From Edaphobacter aggregans (lineage in GTDB: Bacteria; Acidobacteriota; Terriglobia; Terriglobales; Acidobacteriaceae), in assembly GCF_003945235.1 (NCBI RefSeq), contig NZ_RSDW01000001.1, positions 1,830,001-1,862,000 of the forward strand: a stretch of DNA of 32,000 nt, in the 5' to 3' direction. The notes under the pieces were generated by a model that had not been told where the DNA came from, did no database searches, and was given only the letters and a program-made list of their open reading frames with translations. Positions 389-13,574 of the stretch are shown here, one piece after another. Numbering within the stretch: position 1 is the stretch's first letter; each line of letters begins with the position of its first letter. The translations under genes were made by a program, and so were the position numbers.

Positions 389-464
389 TGGTGGAGCTGA
401 GCGGGATCGAACCGCTGACCTCCTCGTTGCGAACGAGGCGCTCTCCCAGCTGAGCTACAGCCCC
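389..464 (-). tRNA. tRNA-Ala, anticodon CGC, CCA encoded
   Basis: Reverse complement folds by hand into a 76-nt cloverleaf. Acceptor stem GGGGCUG/CAGCUCC has the G3:U70 Ala identity pair. Anticodon stem CCUCG/CGAGG carries loop UUCGCAA. T arm is AGCGG-UUCGAUC-CCGCU, with 3' ACCA. Confidence 0.92.
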
Positions 465-1957: not shown

Positions 1958-3265
1958 ATGCCATCCAGACGAAGCTTCCTCCTAGCCGCCACCGCAGCAG
2001 CCGCAGCACCGTCACTCTCCCTTCAAGCCCAGCGCCCCTCCACAGCGCCCCCGTCCGACCTCAAGCTCCCCGCGCCAATCGCCGCGCTCACCAGCCGCCG
2101 CTCCGAAGCCGTGCCCATCACCCTCGAAGAGCGCGAGCAGCGCGTCGAACGCGCCCGCCAGCTTCTCGCCGAGCACAAGATCGACGCCCTCGTCATCACC
2201 ACCGGCACCTCGCTCAACTACTTCACCGGTCTGCGTTGGGGCCAGTCCGAGCGCTTCTTCGCCTGGGTCCTCCCCGTCAAAGGAAGTCCCTTCATCGTCA
2301 GCCCCGTCTTCGAAGAAGGCCGCGTCCGCGAGCGCATGGAAGCCAAGCCCGCAACGCTCCCACAAGCGTCCAACACCAAGGTCTACACCTGGAACGAAGA
2401 CGAGAACCCCTACGCTCTCGTCGCCAAAGCACTGAAGGAAGCAGGCATCACCACCGGAAAGATCGGCGTCGAGGAGCGCACCCAGTTCGCCTTCTCCGAC
2501 GGCATCGCCCACGCCAGCCCCACCCTCACCGCTGTCAGCGGAACCCCCATCACCTTCGGCTGCCGCGGCGTCAAAACTCCCGCCGAGCTGGCCCTCATGC
2601 GCCTCGCCAACGACGTCACCTTCAACGTCTACGAAGCCGTCTACAAATCCGCACAGCCCGGCATGACCAACCGCCAGTTCAGCGAGCTCGTCTCCGCCGC
2701 CTACAACCGCGTCGGCTTCCCCGGCGACGCCAGCTGCCAGGTCGCCGAGTACTCTGCCCTGCCCCACGGCTCCCTCCAGCCGCAGGTCATCCGCGAGGGC
2801 CAAATCATCCTCATCGACGACGGCTGCACCGTCGAAGGCTATCAGTCCGACATGTCTCGCACCTTCGTCCTCGGCAAAGCCACCGACAAGCAAAAGAAGG
2901 TCTTCGAGATCGTCCACAAAGCCCAGGCCGCAGCCCTCGCCGCAGCGCATCCCGGTGTGCAGTGTCAGGCCATCGACGCCGCAGCCCGCAAGGTCATCAG
3001 CGATGCAGGCTTCGGCCCCGACTACAAATACTTCAGCCACCGCGTCGGCCACGGCATCGGCATGGACGGCCACGAGTGGCCCTATCTCGTCCGCGGCAAC
3101 ACCACACCGCTCGCCGCCGGCATGACCTTTTCCGACGAGCCCGGCATCTACATCACCGGCGAGTTCGGCGTCCGCCTCGAAGACGACTGGGTCGTCACTC
3201 CCAGCGGCGGAGAGATGTTCACCCCGCAAAGCCCGTCGCTTGAAGACCCCTTCGCCAAAGCCTAA
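1958..3265 (+). CDS. M24-family Xaa-Pro aminopeptidase/dipeptidase with Tat-type signal
   Basis: N-terminus MPSRRSFLLAATAAAAAPSLSLQA (twin-arginine-like). Pita-bread metal-site motifs DDGCTVEGYQSD, HRVGHGIGMDGHEWP, SDEPGIY, VRLEDD. The ORF-track start at 1832 overlaps the divergent fbp start and is unlikely. Confidence 0.88.
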   Translation: MPSRRSFLLAATAAAAAPSLSLQAQRPSTAPPSDLKLPAPIAALTSRRSEAVPITLEEREQRVERARQLLAEHKIDALVITTGTSLNYFTGLRWGQSERFFAWVLPVKGSPFIVSPVFEEGRVRERMEAKPATLPQASNTKVYTWNEDENPYALVAKALKEAGITTGKIGVEERTQFAFSDGIAHASPTLTAVSGTPITFGCRGVKTPAELALMRLANDVTFNVYEAVYKSAQPGMTNRQFSELVSAAYNRVGFPGDASCQVAEYSALPHGSLQPQVIREGQIILIDDGCTVEGYQSDMSRTFVLGKATDKQKKVFEIVHKAQAAALAAAHPGVQCQAIDAAARKVISDAGFGPDYKYFSHRVGHGIGMDGHEWPYLVRGNTTPLAAGMTFSDEPGIYITGEFGVRLEDDWVVTPSGGEMFTPQSPSLEDPFAKA

Positions 3266-3289
3266 GACATCCTCGTAGGCGATAATAAT

Positions 3290-3328
3290 CCGGTCGGCAA
3301 GCACAGCAGATCCAAGCCTGCCGACCGG
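3290..3328 (+). terminator. perfect 10-bp stem (CCGGTCGGCA/TGCCGACCGG) with 19-nt loop between the M24 and M13 genes, no U-tract
   Basis: Read directly from sequence. Function (terminator, processing or stability element) unknown. Confidence 0.3.
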
Positions 3329-3339
3329 AGCAAACCAAG

Positions 3340-5418
3340 ATGAATCTCATCGCCCGCCGCCTCCTCCCCATCGCCGGCAGCCTCCTCCTCACCTTCAGCG
3401 TCTCCGCCACAGCCCAAACCGCAGAAAAGACCGCGGCCCCCCTCGCCCACGGCATCGCCATCGCCAACATGGACACCTCCGTCCGGCCCGGCGACGACTT
3501 CTACTCCTTCGCCAACGGCGGCTTCATCGCGCACACCAAGCTTCCCCCCGACCGCGCCACCATCGGCGTCTTCACCGTCCTCTCCGACCTCAGCTCCGAG
3601 CGCACCACCAGCATCATTCAGGACGCCGCTAAAGCGAACGCCGTGCCCGGCACAGACCAGCGCAAGATCGCCGACCTCTACCACTCCTACATGGACGAGG
3701 CTGCCATCGAGACCCACGGCCTCGCCACCCTCAAGCCCCACCTCGCCGAAATCGCCGCGATCAGCTCTCCACAGCAACTCGCCCACGCCCTCGGCCTCTC
3801 CCTCCGCGCCGACGTCGATGCCCTCAACAACACCAACTTCCACACGCCGAACATCTTCGGCCTCTGGGTCGCACCCAGCTTCAACGATCCCGACCACTAC
3901 GCACCCTACCTCCTGCAAGGCGGCCTGCAACTCCCCAACCGCGACTACTATCTCTCCACCTCCCCGCGCATGCAGGAGATCCGCACCAAGTACCAGGCCC
4001 ACATCGCCGCCATGTTCCGCCTCGCTGGCATCTCCGACGCTGAGGCGCGCGCCACCCGTGTCCTCACCCTCGAAACCGCGATAGCCAAGGTCCACATCTC
4101 ACTCGCCGACAGCGAAGACATCCACAAAGCCAACAACCCCTGGACACCCGCCGACTTCTCCACCAACGCCCCCGGACTCAACTGGCCCGAGTTCTTCCGC
4201 GCCGCCGGCCTCGATAAGCAGACGACCTTCATCGTCTGGCAGCCTATTGCCTTCACTGGTGAGGCCGCGCTCGTAAGCTCCCAGCCCATCGACGCCTGGA
4301 AGGACCTGCTCGCCTATCACCTCATCGAGGCCTACGCCGCAGCTTCATCCAAGGCGCTCGCCGACGAAAGCTTCGCCTTCTTCGGTCAGACCCTCTCCGG
4401 CACGCCCCAGCAGCGCCCGCGCGACGTCCGCGGAGCCCGCCTCGTATCCGGCCTGCTCGGCGGTCCCGTAGGCCAGATCTTCGCGCAACAATACTTCTCC
4501 CCCGAGGCCAAAGCCCAGGCAGAAGCCCTCGTCTCCAACCTCATCGCCGCATTCCGCCAGCGCCTCGAGAACCTGACCTGGATGGCCCCCGCCACCAAAG
4601 CCGAAGCCCTCGCCAAACTCGGCACCCTGCAAGTCGGCATCGGCTACCCCGACCACTGGCGCAGTTACGCCGCGCTTGAAGTCACACCCGACAACCTCTT
4701 CCTCAACCTCTGGCGCAGCGATCTCTTCGAATACCACTACGATGTCGGCCGCATCGGAACCACCGTCGACCGCCGCGAGTGGACCATGAACCCGCAAACC
4801 GTCAACGCCGTCAATCTTCCTCTCCACAACGGCCTCAACTTCCCCGCCGCCATCCTGCAACCACCCTTCTTCGATCCCAAGGCCCCCGCCGCAGTGAACT
4901 ACGGAGCCATCGGCACCGTCATCGGCCATGAGATCAGCCACACCTTCGACTCCGAGGGCGCCGCCTTCGACTCCAAAGGCCGTGTCCGCAACTGGTGGAC
5001 ACCCGAAGACCTCGCCCACTTCAACGCCGCTGCCGCCGCACTGGCCGCACAATACGACACCTACAAGGCCTTCCCGGATCTCGCCGTAAACGGTCGCCAA
5101 ACCCTCGGAGAAAACATCGCCGACGTCGCCGGCCTAACCGCCGCATACGATGGCTACCACGCCTCACTGAACGGCAAGCCCGCTCCCATGGACGGCAACT
5201 TCACCGGCGACCAGCAGTTCTTCATAGCCTTCGCACAGAACTGGGGCTCCGTCGTCCGCGACGCCACGCTCCGCCAGCAGATCCTCACCGATCCCCATGC
5301 CCCCGGCCGTTTCCGCGCAGCCACCGTCCGCAACAACGACGCATGGTATCCCGCCTTCGACGTCCAACCCACCGACAAGCTCTACATCGCCCCCAAGGAT
5401 CGCGTTCAACTCTGGTAG
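3340..5418 (+). CDS. M13-family zinc endopeptidase (PepO / endothelin-converting-enzyme-like), secreted
   Basis: HEISHTFD (HExxH) and ENIADVAGL (ExxxD) zinc site, NAVNLP, about 690 aa. N-terminal signal peptide MNLIARRLLPIAGSLLLTFSVSATAQ. GGAG lies 9 nt upstream. Confidence 0.92.
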   Translation: MNLIARRLLPIAGSLLLTFSVSATAQTAEKTAAPLAHGIAIANMDTSVRPGDDFYSFANGGFIAHTKLPPDRATIGVFTVLSDLSSERTTSIIQDAAKANAVPGTDQRKIADLYHSYMDEAAIETHGLATLKPHLAEIAAISSPQQLAHALGLSLRADVDALNNTNFHTPNIFGLWVAPSFNDPDHYAPYLLQGGLQLPNRDYYLSTSPRMQEIRTKYQAHIAAMFRLAGISDAEARATRVLTLETAIAKVHISLADSEDIHKANNPWTPADFSTNAPGLNWPEFFRAAGLDKQTTFIVWQPIAFTGEAALVSSQPIDAWKDLLAYHLIEAYAAASSKALADESFAFFGQTLSGTPQQRPRDVRGARLVSGLLGGPVGQIFAQQYFSPEAKAQAEALVSNLIAAFRQRLENLTWMAPATKAEALAKLGTLQVGIGYPDHWRSYAALEVTPDNLFLNLWRSDLFEYHYDVGRIGTTVDRREWTMNPQTVNAVNLPLHNGLNFPAAILQPPFFDPKAPAAVNYGAIGTVIGHEISHTFDSEGAAFDSKGRVRNWWTPEDLAHFNAAAAALAAQYDTYKAFPDLAVNGRQTLGENIADVAGLTAAYDGYHASLNGKPAPMDGNFTGDQQFFIAFAQNWGSVVRDATLRQQILTDPHAPGRFRAATVRNNDAWYPAFDVQPTDKLYIAPKDRVQLW

Positions 5419-5474: not shown

Positions 5475-5507
5475 GGGGCGGCAGTATATGGCCTGCCGCC
5501 CTTTTTT
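5475..5507. terminator. bidirectional intrinsic terminator between the convergent M13 and S15 peptidase genes
   Basis: Stem GGGCGGCAG (5476-5484) / CTGCCGCCC (5493-5501), 8-nt loop, followed by TTTTTT (5502-5507). The opposite strand has CTCTTTCTTT after the stem. Confidence 0.75.
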
Positions 5508-5540
5508 AAATCAGTGTCATCGGTGTAAATCGGTGTTAGG
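5505..5540. repeat. solo copy of the triple ATCGGTG-unit array (units at 5510, 5519, 5529)
   Basis: TTTAAATCAGTGTCATCGGTGTAAATCGGTGTTAGG is 30/36 identical by hand alignment to 12827-12862, with the same 9/10-nt unit spacing. Lies between the terminator and the S15 stop codon. Confidence 0.7.
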
Positions 5541-5548
5541 TTTTTCGC

Positions 5549-7477
5549 TTACGGCATCACCAGCACTTCAACCCCGCTGGCCGCATCCGCATTCCGGTAG
5601 ACACTCTCCGTAGCCTTCACAAACTGTTCCGGCTTGGCCAGCGGAATATCCACAAACGTCTGCGGATTCCGATCCACCAGCGGGAACCACGAGCTCTGCA
5701 CCTGCACCATGATCCGGTGTCCCGCACGGAACGTGTGGTTGATGTCCGGCATCTCCGCGTTCACAGAGGCCATCTTCCCCGGAACCAGCGGCGTCGGCTT
5801 CTCCCAGCTATCGCGGAACTTCGCCCGCATAGGCTCGCCGCGCACAAGCTGCTGGTACCCGCCCATCACAACTGGAGCAGCACCGACAACCCTCTTGTTT
5901 CCGGCATCCGCGGCGCTCGCATAGTCATACGGATACACATCGATCAGCTTCACCACAAAGTCCGAGTCCGTTCCAGTCGAAGCAATCTTCAGCTTCGGCC
6001 GCACCGGCCCCACGATCGTCACATCCTCTTTCAGCGGCTCCGACTCATACACCAGAACATCCGGCCTCGTCGAAGCAAACCGCTGATCATCCGCCATATA
6101 CCGCTGCGGAACCGTATCCGTCGGATACCCCACAAACGGCACCGGATGCGCAGGATCGCTCACATACTCATCCACGCCGGCCTTCTCCGTCGGCGCATCG
6201 AAGCTCAACTTCCCACCCGCATGGAAGTAAAGCGTCTTCGCAACCGCAGGCTTAGGAGGCCAGGCATCATACGTCTTCCAGACGTTGCTTCCCGTCTCGA
6301 ACACATAAGCCTTCGGCATCGGTGCGCCATGCACGCCCTTCAGGTAGTACTCAAAAAACGGATACTCGATCTTCGCCCGATAGAACTGCGACGTCTTCGA
6401 ATTGAACGTCACATCGCCCAGATGATCGCCATCCGTCCGCGACCATCCGCCATGCGTCCACGGCCCAATCACCAGCGTATTCACCGCACCCGGATTGAAC
6501 TCATCGATAGCATGAAATGTCTTGAACGGCCCCGACAGATCCTCCGCATCAAACCACCCGCCAACAGTCATCACCGCCGCATGAACGCCCTTCATATGTT
6601 GCGACAGATCACGCTTCTTCCAATACTCGTCATACGTCGTGTGCATCACCTGGTCGTGAAACAGCCAGTTGCTGCCATTCAGATACTCCTTGCCCGTATC
6701 CAGATTCCCGGTCGGTCCCGCAGCCAGCAACGCCGCATACGTATCCGGATTCTCATCCGCCGAAGGCCCACCACCCCTCGGTCCACCCGTCGGAATAACC
6801 GGATTCTTCTGCGGAGCGAAGAACCGATAAAACCCATAGTTCGCGCCCAGCATAAACGCGCCGCCATGGTACCCATCATCGTTGAAGAACAAATTCGTCA
6901 TCGGAGCCTGCGGACTCGCCGCCTTGATCGCCGGATGCGAATCGATAATGCTCGCCGACGTATAGAACCCCGGGTAGCTGATACCCGTAATCCCAACCTT
7001 GCCGTTATTGTTCGGCACATGCTTCAGCAGGAACTCCACCGTGTCGTACATATCGCTCGACTCATCCACATCCTTCGCCGACTTCTTCTCATCGATATGT
7101 ACATTCATCTCCTGAAACGCACCCTCGCTCGCCGTGCGCCCACGCGCATCTTCACAAACAAAGATGTACCCCGACTCCATCAGCTCCTGGCTAGGCCCAA
7201 TCCTCGCAGGAAACTTGTCCTCCCCATAAGGAGCGCAGCTATAAGGAGTCCGCGTCATCAAAAACGGATAAGGCCCCGAATCCTTGAACGCTCCCGCCTG
7301 CGGCACATACACCGAAGCAAACAGCTTCACCCCATCCCGCATCGGAATCCGATACTCATACTTCGCATAGTGCGTCTTCACAAAATCATCCGCTGCCGCA
7401 GCCGCTGGAGCCTGCGCAGACGCCGCAACCGAGTATGCAACTAACAAACAAGCCGCAAGACAAAGCTTCGCCTTCAT
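5549..7477 (-). CDS. S15-family CocE/NonD hydrolase (X-Pro dipeptidyl-peptidase-like), secreted
   Basis: Nucleophile elbow GISYPGFY (GxSYxG), about 640 aa with a C-terminal PepX_C-like region. Signal peptide MKAKLCLAACLLVAYSVAASAQA. SD AAGGTGA lies 5 nt upstream. Confidence 0.88.
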   Translation of the reverse strand: MKAKLCLAACLLVAYSVAASAQAPAAAAADDFVKTHYAKYEYRIPMRDGVKLFASVYVPQAGAFKDSGPYPFLMTRTPYSCAPYGEDKFPARIGPSQELMESGYIFVCEDARGRTASEGAFQEMNVHIDEKKSAKDVDESSDMYDTVEFLLKHVPNNNGKVGITGISYPGFYTSASIIDSHPAIKAASPQAPMTNLFFNDDGYHGGAFMLGANYGFYRFFAPQKNPVIPTGGPRGGGPSADENPDTYAALLAAGPTGNLDTGKEYLNGSNWLFHDQVMHTTYDEYWKKRDLSQHMKGVHAAVMTVGGWFDAEDLSGPFKTFHAIDEFNPGAVNTLVIGPWTHGGWSRTDGDHLGDVTFNSKTSQFYRAKIEYPFFEYYLKGVHGAPMPKAYVFETGSNVWKTYDAWPPKPAVAKTLYFHAGGKLSFDAPTEKAGVDEYVSDPAHPVPFVGYPTDTVPQRYMADDQRFASTRPDVLVYESEPLKEDVTIVGPVRPKLKIASTGTDSDFVVKLIDVYPYDYASAADAGNKRVVGAAPVVMGGYQQLVRGEPMRAKFRDSWEKPTPLVPGKMASVNAEMPDINHTFRAGHRIMVQVQSSWFPLVDRNPQTFVDIPLAKPEQFVKATESVYRNADAASGVEVLVMP

Positions 7478-11722: not shown

Positions 11723-12334
11723 TTAAGTCAGATCATCCGTATCAAACGCAGGCTTCCGCCCCAGCGCCGACACATCGCGCGACCCACCCACAAGCCCTTT
11801 CACCACCTGATCGATCTCGTCCTCCACATCAGCAGTGGCAACCATCCGCGCAGATGACTCAGCAAGCCCAACGCTCTCAAGCAGCACCGTCGCATGGGCG
11901 ACCGCAACATGGTCCTGATTCAACCCTTCAGGCGTCTTGGCCTTGATCCCGACCTCGCCCGGCTTCACGCCCAACAACTCCGCCACGCGCTCCCGCAGCT
12001 CCCCGGCAATCGGCACAATCTTCGGCTTCGCCAGCACCAGCACCGTATCGATATTGACGATCTTGTACCCCGCCGTCGCCACCTCTTCGAGCGCGGTCTG
12101 CAAAAACACACTAGAAGCCGCACCTTTCCACCGAGGATCGCTAGGCGGAAAGAAAGTCCCAATATCCCCCGCCGAAACCGCACCCAGCAAAGCATCCGTA
12201 ATCGCATGCAGCAACACATCCCCATCCGAGTGCCCAGCCAGCCCCTCCGAATGCTCAATCGCCAAGCCACCAATCACCAGCGGCACGCCGGGCTTGAACG
12301 CATGCGAATCAAACCCATATCCAATTCTCATCAT
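11723..12334 (-). CDS. ispF: 2-C-methyl-D-erythritol 2,4-cyclodiphosphate synthase with a C-terminal extension of about 45 aa
   Basis: GYGFDSHAF, GHSDGDVLLHAITDALLGA, DIGTFFP, and the KAKTPEGL region. The canonical domain ends near VLLE. Start ATG overlaps the upstream ORF stop (ATGA, 12331-12334). Confidence 0.9.
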   Translation of the reverse strand: MMRIGYGFDSHAFKPGVPLVIGGLAIEHSEGLAGHSDGDVLLHAITDALLGAVSAGDIGTFFPPSDPRWKGAASSVFLQTALEEVATAGYKIVNIDTVLVLAKPKIVPIAGELRERVAELLGVKPGEVGIKAKTPEGLNQDHVAVAHATVLLESVGLAESSARMVATADVEDEIDQVVKGLVGGSRDVSALGRKPAFDTDDLT

Positions 12335-12804
12335 GGAATCATCTCAGGAGCCAAAAAAGGCTCAACACCGATTGTCACCGATTCCACCGATTTATGTATC
12401 GGCTTCTTCAACTCATTGTCCATCACGAACCTTTTGAACCTTGGCGATGGCCCAAAATTCATAAGCAAGCCAACCTCGATCGTGGTTGCTCGCAGATAGT
12501 GCATCGTCTGCGATTCATGTTGCCGCATCATCTGATCGCTAGCCTTCAATTCAACAAGCACAGCGTCATTTACGATCAAATCGGCTCTAAATACTCCAAC
12601 AACACTTCCACGAAAGCTCACCGGCACAGGAACCTCCGTATTCACCCTCAAACCCACCTGCGTCAATGCCAGCCTCATCGCCTCCCGATACACCGACTCA
12701 AGAAACCCATCCCCAAGCTCGTTATACACATCATAGAAAACCCCAATAATTCGCTCCGTGAGATCATCATGCTTGCCACGAGTTCGCTTCTGATCGGTTT
12801 CCAT
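12331..12804 (-). CDS. GxxExxY protein (PD-(D/E)XK-like small protein family) with a read-through C-terminal tail
   Basis: GFLESVY signature, VLVELKA, GLLMNFG, all typical of the family. ATG at 12802-12804 (a TTG at 12805-12807 is also possible). The last ~30 codons (KKPIHKSVESVTIGVEPFLAPEMIP) are translated from the flanking repeat array. Confidence 0.8.
   Translation of the reverse strand: METDQKRTRGKHDDLTERIIGVFYDVYNELGDGFLESVYREAMRLALTQVGLRVNTEVPVPVSFRGSVVGVFRADLIVNDAVLVELKASDQMMRQHESQTMHYLRATTIEVGLLMNFGPSPRFKRFVMDNELKKPIHKSVESVTIGVEPFLAPEMIP
12364..12399. repeat. left inverted array: CACCGAT x3 (12366, 12376, 12385)
   Basis: Its reverse complement ...AAATCGGTGGAATCGGTGACAATCGGTGTT aligns with 12827-12862 (about 26/32 by hand). 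Confidence 0.7.
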
Positions 12805-12826
12805 CAATAATCAGGCCTTTGCTTGT

Positions 12827-12862
12827 TTTTAATCGGTCTAATCGGTGTAGATCGGTGTTAAG
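12827..12862. repeat. right array: ATCGGTN x3 (12832, 12841, 12851)
   Basis: TTTTAATCGGTCTAATCGGTGTAGATCGGTGTTAAG. The last unit runs into the ispD stop codon (TTA 12858-12860). Confidence 0.7.
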
Positions 12863-13574
12863 CCTTCGCCTGCCCTAAGTAGAACTCCGCCAGCTCAATA
12901 TCCCCCGGCTGAGTAATCTTGAAATTCCTGGCCGACCCCGGCACTACAGCCACCTCAATCCCCGCCCGCTCCAGCAGACTAGCCTCATCCGTCCCGGCAA
13001 ACCCATCCGCCTCGGCCTCCGCATAGGCCCGCCGCAACAACCCCACCCGAGCACCCTGCGGAGTCTGCGCATGCACAATCCGTTCCCGCGGAATCGTCGC
13101 CGTCACAATCGCCCCCTCGGCCGTCCGCTCCACCTGCTTGATCGTGTCCACCGCCGGCAACCCAACGATCGCCGCGCCATGCTTCACCACCGCATCAATC
13201 GTCCGCTCAATCGTCGCCGGATCGATCAGCGGCCGCACCGCATCATGCACGAGCACGACATCGTCCTCATCGCACTCCAACGCAGCCAGAGCATTCCCCA
13301 CCGACTCCTGCCGATGATCGCCACCCTCGACCATATGCACCAACGGCCCCAGCTTGTACTCCGCCACCTGAGCCTCCACCCGATCCTTCTCGGCGCCGCG
13401 CACAGCAACACAAACCGCGTCCACCCGAGGCACCGCCAAAAACGCCCTCAGCGACCGGATCAGCACCGGCACACCGCCAATCTCAAGAAACTGTTTCGGC
13501 GCCACCGTCGACGCACCACCCGCGGCCATCCGCGTCCCAATACCCGCTGCAGGAAGAATCACAAAAACTCGCAT
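12858..13574 (-). CDS. ispD: 2-C-methyl-D-erythritol 4-phosphate cytidylyltransferase
   Basis: VILPAAGIGTRM, KQFLEIGG, VLVHDAVRP, VDTIK, and the C-terminal NFKITQPGDIELAE. Start taken at ATG 13572-13574 (MRVFVILPAAG). The upstream in-frame Mets add a non-conserved leader. Confidence 0.88.
   Translation of the reverse strand: MRVFVILPAAGIGTRMAAGGASTVAPKQFLEIGGVPVLIRSLRAFLAVPRVDAVCVAVRGAEKDRVEAQVAEYKLGPLVHMVEGGDHRQESVGNALAALECDEDDVVLVHDAVRPLIDPATIERTIDAVVKHGAAIVGLPAVDTIKQVERTAEGAIVTATIPRERIVHAQTPQGARVGLLRRAYAEAEADGFAGTDEASLLERAGIEVAVVPGSARNFKITQPGDIELAEFYLGQAKA

Follow-up and report, generated by a model that had tools for sequence, protein, structure and literature searches.

A GxxExxY gene between ispD and ispF of Edaphobacter aggregans is bracketed by inverted heptamer arrays that are dispersed as doublets through Acidobacteriaceae genomes

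A gene of the GxxExxY/PDDEXK_3 family is wedged between ispD and ispF in a 32,000-nt stretch of Edaphobacter aggregans (GCF_003945235.1, NZ_RSDW01000001.1, 1,830,001–1,862,000; the whole stretch is called the window below), where it is bracketed by two inverted arrays, or arms, of three phased heptamers of the ATCGGTG type. Arms of the same kind are found without the gene in intergenic DNA of Acidobacteriaceae genomes, as inverted doublets and as solo copies. The encoded protein is probably a resident PD-(D/E)XK protein that binds the heptamer arrays, with its gene as the coding 'master' copy of the doublet family, comparable to the REPIN–RAYT system, which is described as doublets of repetitive extragenic palindromic (REP) sequences together with a REP-associated tyrosine transposase (PMC3116915, PMC3337134, PMC5581495, bioRxiv 10.1101/2022.05.22.493013). 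This reading draws on the architecture of the locus, the scatter of the arms, the bias in doublet orientation, the covariation of head, tail and dispersed arms, the conservation of the units and the selection on the protein; the protein itself would bind the heptamers, cut there and spread or maintain the arms. Within the limits of the literature searched, the association of repeats with GxxExxY genes appears undescribed. Full-text searches on GxxExxY, PDDEXK_3, PF13366, TIGR04256 and a repeat association returned incidental mentions only, with the function listed as unknown, and a superfamily survey of 2012 lists the function of the family in the same way.

The three genes are co-oriented on the minus strand, with the GxxExxY gene in the middle. 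Its upstream neighbor is ispD (12858–13574; PF01128, 2e-61) and its downstream neighbor is ispF (11723–12334; PF02542 (YgbB), 5e-54), and the gene itself encodes 157 amino acids at 12331–12804/12807 (PF13366, 1.4e-36; TIGR04256, 5e-36). Its stop codon overlaps the ispF start in an ATGA (12331–12334, minus strand) that is kept in orthologues, which suggests translational coupling of the two genes. The head arm (12831–12866), upstream of the gene, comprises ATCGGTC at 12832 and ATCGGTG at 12841 and 12851, followed by TTAAGCCTT; the last two ispD codons and the stop (AAG GCT TAA) are part of this arm, and its array adjoins the ispD stop codon (TTA, 12858–12860). The tail arm (12357–12392) is located inside the 3' tail of the open reading frame (ORF), with CACCGAT at 12366, 12376 and 12385 and AAGGCTCAA before them on the plus strand, and is translated within the ORF as ...KSVESVTIGVE.... 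A repeat finder run on the window reported the arms as an inverted repeat of 36 nt, 83% complementary and 438 nt apart, and the unit spacing is mirrored (10/9 in the left array vs. 9/10 in the right array). A preliminary description of this DNA had given the same gene order and coordinates, the six units with their mirrored spacing, the inverted relation of the flanks and the end of the right array on the ispD stop, and had proposed a cassette with terminal inverted repeats; all of this was confirmed, the genes being assigned by Pfam and the terminal inverted repeats being defined.

In the window, ATCGGTG occurs 13 times vs. 4.9 expected, a count that none of 100 shuffles reached, and the two-unit pattern has three matches vs. 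0.15 expected; the arrays are therefore not explained by chance. An extra degenerate unit (12793–12798; ATCGGT on the plus strand, ACCGAT on the gene strand) lies in the ORF start, where it encodes the N-terminal T-D-Q, and some orthologues have two copies of it (TDNTDQ). An Rfam scan of the window returned no family covering the arms. A role of the arms as sigma-70 promoter or terminator was also considered and is unsupported, as the promoter-like and terminator-like totals of the region are within the shuffle range.

Arrays of this kind also occur outside this locus, a point that the preliminary description had left to a comparison with other genomes. A scan of one genome per species with the strict two-unit pattern ATCGGTGNNNATCGGTGTTRRG matched at least 120 8-kb blocks, and 55 assemblies are represented among the matches listed. 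Fifty of these 55 are labelled Acidobacteriaceae, Granulicella, Edaphobacter or Acidobacteria, three contain single in-gene chance matches, and two are otherwise labelled, namely, CAVUSA01 (locus L114, CAVUSA010000013.1, 'Gammaproteobacteria') and JANXWZ01 (L008, JANXWZ010000020.1, 'Rhodanobacteraceae'). L008 has a GxxExxY tail array followed directly by ispF. Horizontal transfer into Gammaproteobacteria was considered for CAVUSA01 and rejected, since L114, which also has the arrays, shows the Acidobacteriaceae synteny tilS–ispD–GxxExxY–ispF and an ispF that is ~85% identical; the labels of both metagenome-assembled genomes are probably wrong. Aligned in register, 136 distinct arms among the matches listed give the consensus wwATCGGTgyc-ATCGGTGyaa-ATCGGTGTTAAGCCTTT, in which the parts outside the search pattern are still conserved (third unit 85–88%, outer CCTTT 65–85%).

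An arm profile applied to 126 sources (~0.95 Mb; 946 kb) found 192 arms among the matches listed, and the following arm counts hold for such matches. Neighboring arms at most 1 kb apart are outward-facing in 41 cases, inward-facing in four and direct in four, and the outward-facing doublet reads AAAGGCTTAACACCGAT ... ATCGGTGTTAAGCCTTT across its middle. These outward doublets hold ~40% of the arms, while 110 of the 192 are solo, with a decayed partner arm beside at least some of them. The doublet middles range continuously from 2 to 174 nt, and a separate group of eight at 388–433 nt is composed of the GxxExxY cassettes. Approximately 90% of the arms are intergenic, though 82% of the DNA is genic; a rough estimate of their density is ~100 sites per genome. 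A comparison of the cassette head arm with the dispersed arms, made to find more extended homology, yielded only a shared T-run and, weakly, a TGYCTGTTYTT box in 12 of 125 arms. BLAST of the arm against plasmids returned only one 22-nt chance match in Pantoea, and a scan of viral contigs with the DNA pattern only one in-gene chance match.

The spacers of the two arms of one doublet agree no better than those of randomly paired arms (8% vs. 12%), so that the heptamers and their spacing are conserved and not a stem. This bears on an explanation at the RNA level, according to which the arms pair into a long stem in the transcript (an RNase III-type substrate, mRNA stabilizer or attenuator), the dispersed doublets are hairpins of 3' or 5' untranslated regions, and the protein is incidental or RNA-directed. 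The minimum-energy fold of the 561-nt transcript does pair both arms (z = -5.0), REP elements are known to stabilize mRNA, and the arms sit tight against stop codons: of 144 strict arms among the matches listed, 59 lie no more than 60 nt from the 3' end of a gene, and 11 provide that gene's TAA. However, arm pairing is automatic for any inverted repeat, the between-unit spacers do not covary between doublet arms, the 110 solo arms cannot form a stem, and the orientations relative to genes are near-equal, with 83 arms facing a stop and 76 a start among the matches listed. A role of the arms as RNA stems appears unlikely.

Whether other GxxExxY genes carry inverted arrays was also raised in the preliminary description, and equivalent arrays are indeed present at other bacterial members. 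All 15 bacterial GxxExxY genes with DNA have phased units at the head and/or tail, comprising at least four unit types and extending down to 31% protein identity; the variants at these other genes are ATCCGCG, ATCCGTG and ATCTGTG. In orthologous ispD–ispF wedges elsewhere, both arms have switched together: L126 has CACGGAT x3 at the head and ATCCGTG x3 at the tail, and L210 and L211 have CGCGGAT x3 at the head and ATCCGCG x3 ...GGTAG at the tail. A solo array 4.9 kb away in L210 is identical in unit and GGTAG end to the arms of its own gene. Outside the ispD–ispF context, the first gene of L128, between prfB and a miaB-like gene, has CGCNGAT head units and ATCNGCG tail units, and the second, between the miaB-like gene and yebC/ruvC, has CRCAGAT at the head and ATCTGYG at the tail. 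In L247 (44% identical), the head array overlaps the ORF start (MNAD) and the tail array is outside the ORF; in L322 (31% identical), both arrays are outside. The termini of 270 GxxExxY proteins read as translated arrays, including the N-termini MNADER..., MDAD..., MNTDQ... and MSHGFSRIFTDQ... and the C-termini ...IRVHPRESAA, ...IRENPCESVAK and ...NLCQSVV. Relatives on viral contigs (giant-virus-like LGPGYSERVYHNAMEV clade) have phased arrays in none of 57 distinct cases, and a viral-contig scan with the close-orthologue protein alignment found no relatives.

A metagenome scan with three ATCCGCG units matched at least 120 loci. Among the matches listed, there are 138 strict arrays, only three of them beside a GxxExxY gene, and the neighbors among 214 relaxed arrays are outward-facing in 56 cases, inward-facing in three and direct in 14; they serve as an independent replicate of doublet dispersal. 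The two different genes of L128/L129 (10001–10438 and 11861–12217), each with its own array type, are co-oriented in a prfB–miaB-like–yebC–ruvC–ruvA operon, and the first overlaps the start of the next gene. Members of the GxxExxY family may in general tend to be wedged into operons of housekeeping genes.

The ispD–GxxExxY–ispF wedge is the same in all relatives examined, comprising 13 further fetched loci with at least 10 sequence-distinct wedges and ispF identity down to ~61%. It was seen in L001–L004, L011, L065, L088, L113 and L114 (the last five among the repeat-scan loci) and also in the much more distant lineages of L126, L210 and L211–L213. Identities to the window copy for ispD, GxxExxY and ispF fall together (81, 80 and 91% in L004; 77, 69 and 86% in L001; 56, 59 and 62% in L126), so the GxxExxY gene diverges in step with its neighbors. 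Between the window and L004, the GxxExxY core has a nonsynonymous divergence (dN) of 0.128 and a synonymous divergence (dS) of 1.01, and its dN/dS of 0.13 compares with 0.11 for ispF and 0.23 for ispD; on this ratio, the protein is under purifying selection. Synteny and co-divergence favor vertical inheritance, and they indicate a gene-bearing copy that is old rather than recently inserted; the gene copy number is known from the ~0.95 Mb sampled rather than from complete genomes. In this sampled Acidobacteriaceae DNA (126 sources), a protein hidden Markov model found no second GxxExxY gene, only the ispD–ispF orthologue.

In an alignment of seven orthologous cassettes, the tail array and TTAAGCCTT are the most conserved DNA, the between-unit spacers vary, and the third codon positions elsewhere in the GxxExxY gene are saturated (dS ~1). 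The head arm is conserved across orthologous loci, and the heptamer units are, on this pattern, under constraint at the DNA level. The orthologue in L114 has an in-frame TAA (~2305–2345) and that in L088 an apparent frameshift (3242–3340), which may be pseudogenes or assembly errors; in either case they would be useful for asking whether arrays decay after gene loss.

The preliminary description had interpreted the layout as an insertion cassette rather than a native operon member and had suggested selfish or homing behavior. In this explanation, an active cassette would cut empty sites with its nuclease and the gene bounded by terminal inverted repeats would copy itself in. Such activity would be consistent with the terminal inverted repeat layout, with gene-less doublets that resemble deletion derivatives of the cassette, with family members wedged in other operons such as prfB–miaB–yebC in L128, and with a doublet that L022 has and L030 lacks, where the flanks are ~93% identical and the filled allele supplies the upstream gene with its stop and the downstream ATG with a preceding GGAGG. 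It is contradicted by the position of the gene at the same locus in each sampled relative across deep divergence, by the dN/dS of 0.13, by the lack of a second gene copy in ~0.95 Mb and by the chemistry of PD-(D/E)XK enzymes, which hydrolyse DNA and do not transfer strands. No empty ispD–ispF site, as proposed for checking in relatives, was found among the junctions recovered, all of which were occupied, with no systematic search made and more distant Acidobacteriota outside the sample. Neither the 37 doublet junctions inspected nor the filled/empty pair of L022 and L030 showed a target-site duplication, the ends not being exactly defined without close-strain comparison. A recent or mobile insertion was thus not borne out, and active homing is improbable; a domesticated resident with dispersed non-autonomous relatives fits better, considering the fixed locus, the co-divergence, the purifying selection and the lack of an empty site, a target-site duplication or a second copy.

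Several points weigh against a partnership between the GxxExxY protein and the arrays. The link between gene and array is entirely comparative, and covariation of gene and arms would arise trivially if both were merely co-inherited as one unit. A single gene for each array family in a genome is a presumption drawn from the sampled DNA rather than from a complete-genome count. An arm is present at the orthologous position of a related genome in 163 of 199 comparisons, so that current mobility is low or absent, and the sole clean presence/absence case (L022 vs. L030) is messy, with 26–36 nt replaced and no duplication. L126 has no dispersed arms in 20 kb of flanking DNA. Finally, the same Acidobacteriaceae loci contain a second family, made up of ATCCG[CT]G x3 with a GGTCG or GGTTGC end, to which no GxxExxY gene could be assigned. 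Some of these points would suit arrays that bind another host factor, such as a nucleoid protein, regulator or recombinase, with the GxxExxY genes merely sitting inside such sites: the gene is near only a small minority of arrays, the second family lacks an identified gene, and orthologous positions keep their arms, as expected of sites useful to the host. A host factor would leave aside that phased arrays accompany 15 of 15 bacterial genes, which span at least four unit types and protein identities as low as 31%, that both arms change unit type together between lineages, and that the arrays overlap ORF ends family-wide; this explanation is unlikely. Each of the three rival explanations is considered less likely than a resident protein that recognizes the arrays.

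PF13366 is the only Pfam match of the cassette protein (125.8 bits vs. a cut-off of 22), and TIGR04256 scores 123.5 bits vs. a cut-off of 35. Sixteen orthologues share the helix glutamate and the D...ExK signature (E36, D75, E85 and K87) without exception; across 44 diverse members, E85 and K87 do not vary, and E36 and D75 are at least 90% conserved. The preliminary description had asked for the PD-(D/E)XK residues and fold to be verified, and besides the intact residues, a restriction-endonuclease-like alpha/beta fold is predicted. In the AlphaFold2 model, the core (residues 9–135) has a pLDDT of ~90, and the array-encoded termini (residues 1–8 and 136–157) are predicted to be disordered. The top Foldseek matches in the PDB are lambda exonuclease, Cas4 SSO0001 and LHK-Exo, at a modest level (E ~4e-4, TM ~0.4), and a PDB sequence search with the protein matched no solved structure. 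By motif and predicted fold, the cassette protein belongs to the PD-(D/E)XK nuclease superfamily. Among the 1.84 billion representatives searched, 13,786 are relatives at E<=1e-3; the 120 best homologues are 68–100% identical and most have 157–160 amino acids, and the array-encoded tail is kept in the 16 homologues aligned. Tandem double GxxExxY domains occur in representatives of 250–280 amino acids (P0121, P0122, P0124, P0126, P0127, P0174, P0185 and others).

In the proposed mechanism, the gene and its two arms would constitute the protein-coding 'master' of the heptamer-array inverted doublets, and the GxxExxY protein would recognize its own heptamer. Since the units are phased one helical turn apart, cooperative oligomer binding to the duplex is expected, and three 7-bp sites at this distance together with a short conserved outer end would be contacted on one face. 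The activity of the protein on the heptamers would account for how gene-less doublets and solo arms arose, or are kept, in intergenic DNA. The spread of arms would need host repair or recombination, for instance, repair of a break with another arm as the template, because a hydrolytic nuclease cannot join strands. The gene copy would now be immobile, wedged in the ispD–ispF operon where it supplies the ispD stop and would be translationally coupled to ispF, and this role in ending ispD and coupling into ispF may have helped its fixation.

A single-copy, vertically inherited RAYT gene flanked by inverted REPs that are dispersed as doublets and singlets is reported as the hallmark tying RAYTs to REPs and REPINs (PMC3337134, PMC5581495, 10.1101/2022.05.22.493013). 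The Acidobacteriaceae system is alike in having a gene, apparently inherited vertically, between two inverted repeat copies, with no extra copy in the ~0.95 Mb sampled, in the scatter of repeats through intergenic DNA, either paired as inverted doublets or single, in the long life of the repeats at orthologous sites and in the co-divergence of repeat sequence and gene. It differs in that the protein is of the PD-(D/E)XK type with ~125 core residues, whereas RAYT is a HuH Y1 transposase of the IS200/IS605 type. The repeat is composed of three direct heptamers at helical-turn spacing with spacers that do not pair, in contrast to a REP, which is a palindromic hairpin of 20–40 nt with a GTAG or CGTC head. 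Moreover, the arms overlap the ORF ends and the stop and start codons of neighbors, and the heptamer layout fits duplex binding, while the REP hairpin is recognized on single strands.

Miniature inverted-repeat transposable elements and their parent insertion sequences share with the cassette terminal inverted repeats of ~36–40 nt, many short gene-less derivatives and presence/absence polymorphism at one site. However, the cassette encodes a PD-(D/E)XK protein only, without a DDE, serine or tyrosine transposase, target-site duplication was not detected at the junctions inspected, the doublet middles vary in sequence and length (2–174 nt) instead of being conserved, and the copy that encodes the protein stays at a single locus. 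PD-(D/E)XK homing endonucleases such as I-Ssp6803I are likewise small proteins encoded inside their possible target DNA, but the GxxExxY gene is outside any intron or intein and no empty allele occurs among the junctions recovered. The ends of Tn7 and Mu are multi-site transposon ends, and the TnsA of Tn7 is restriction-enzyme-like; several phased protein-binding sites per inverted end are a common feature, the sites here being putative, but the cassette has no partner strand-transfer enzyme beside it and is only ~500 bp long.

More tentatively, and with less than even confidence, the GxxExxY/PDDEXK_3 family as a whole may be the enzyme partner of an unrecognized repeat class composed of inverted doublets of phased ATCNGYG-type arrays. 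Each subfamily would have its own heptamer, copies would be made or maintained via the nuclease and host repair, and the partnership would be an independently arisen, REPIN/RAYT-like symbiosis in which the enzyme has another fold and recognizes double-stranded DNA. If the favored explanation holds, a very large uncharacterized nuclease family would gain a concrete function, sequence-specific action on phased heptamer arrays, and the odd terminal peptides of GxxExxY proteins (MNADER..., ...IRVHPRESAA, ...KSVESVTIGV) would be explained as translated repeat DNA. If the REPIN–RAYT parallel is true, long-lived vertical repeat–enzyme partnerships would have evolved at least twice with unrelated enzymes, and the heptamer–protein pairs could offer a natural set of programmable DNA-recognition specificities. 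Among the short dispersed repeats of Acidobacteriaceae genomes, the ATCGGTG arrays would be the main one. Annotation is also concerned, as arms that give stop codons and occupy operon junctions affect gene calling.

The second array family comprises 13 perfect three-unit arrays in the 946 kb, outward doublets included, at L010, L014, L023, L034, L051, L085, L089, L099 (1804–1890), L120 and others. It might be the relic of an earlier specificity, given that distant ispD–ispF orthologues use ATCCGCG or ATCCGTG. Composite arms were also observed: eight of 135 ATCGGTG arms have an ATCCGYG array immediately inside in the same orientation (L010 3113–3194, L055 4909–4990, L074, L085, L103, L120 and others), whereas such an array lies outside once and never inside in the opposite orientation. 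The arrangement gives the impression that older arms gained newer ones on their outer side.

Elsewhere in the window, a solo array of the ATCGGTG family at 5508–5541 (plus strand) reads ATCAGTG, ATCGGTG and ATCGGTG, then TTAGG, and is located between convergent genes with no GxxExxY gene nearby. A strong 9-bp GC-rich hairpin (5476–5501) with T-runs on both sides (5476–5507) directly adjoins it; the hairpin sits between the convergent genes 3340–5418 (plus) and 5549–7477 (minus) and resembles a bidirectional terminator. The third-position GC of the GxxExxY gene (12331–12804) is 0.55, below that of ispF (0.67) and ispD (0.71). The window also contains a tRNA gene (392–464, minus strand; RF00005, 66 bits), the sole match of the Rfam scan. 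IspF here has 203 amino acids, with a C-terminal extension of ~50 residues past the YgbB domain (...ALGRKPAFDTDDLT; window 11723–11880), which is kept in L001, L004 and L114 and missing in L126, L210 and L211.

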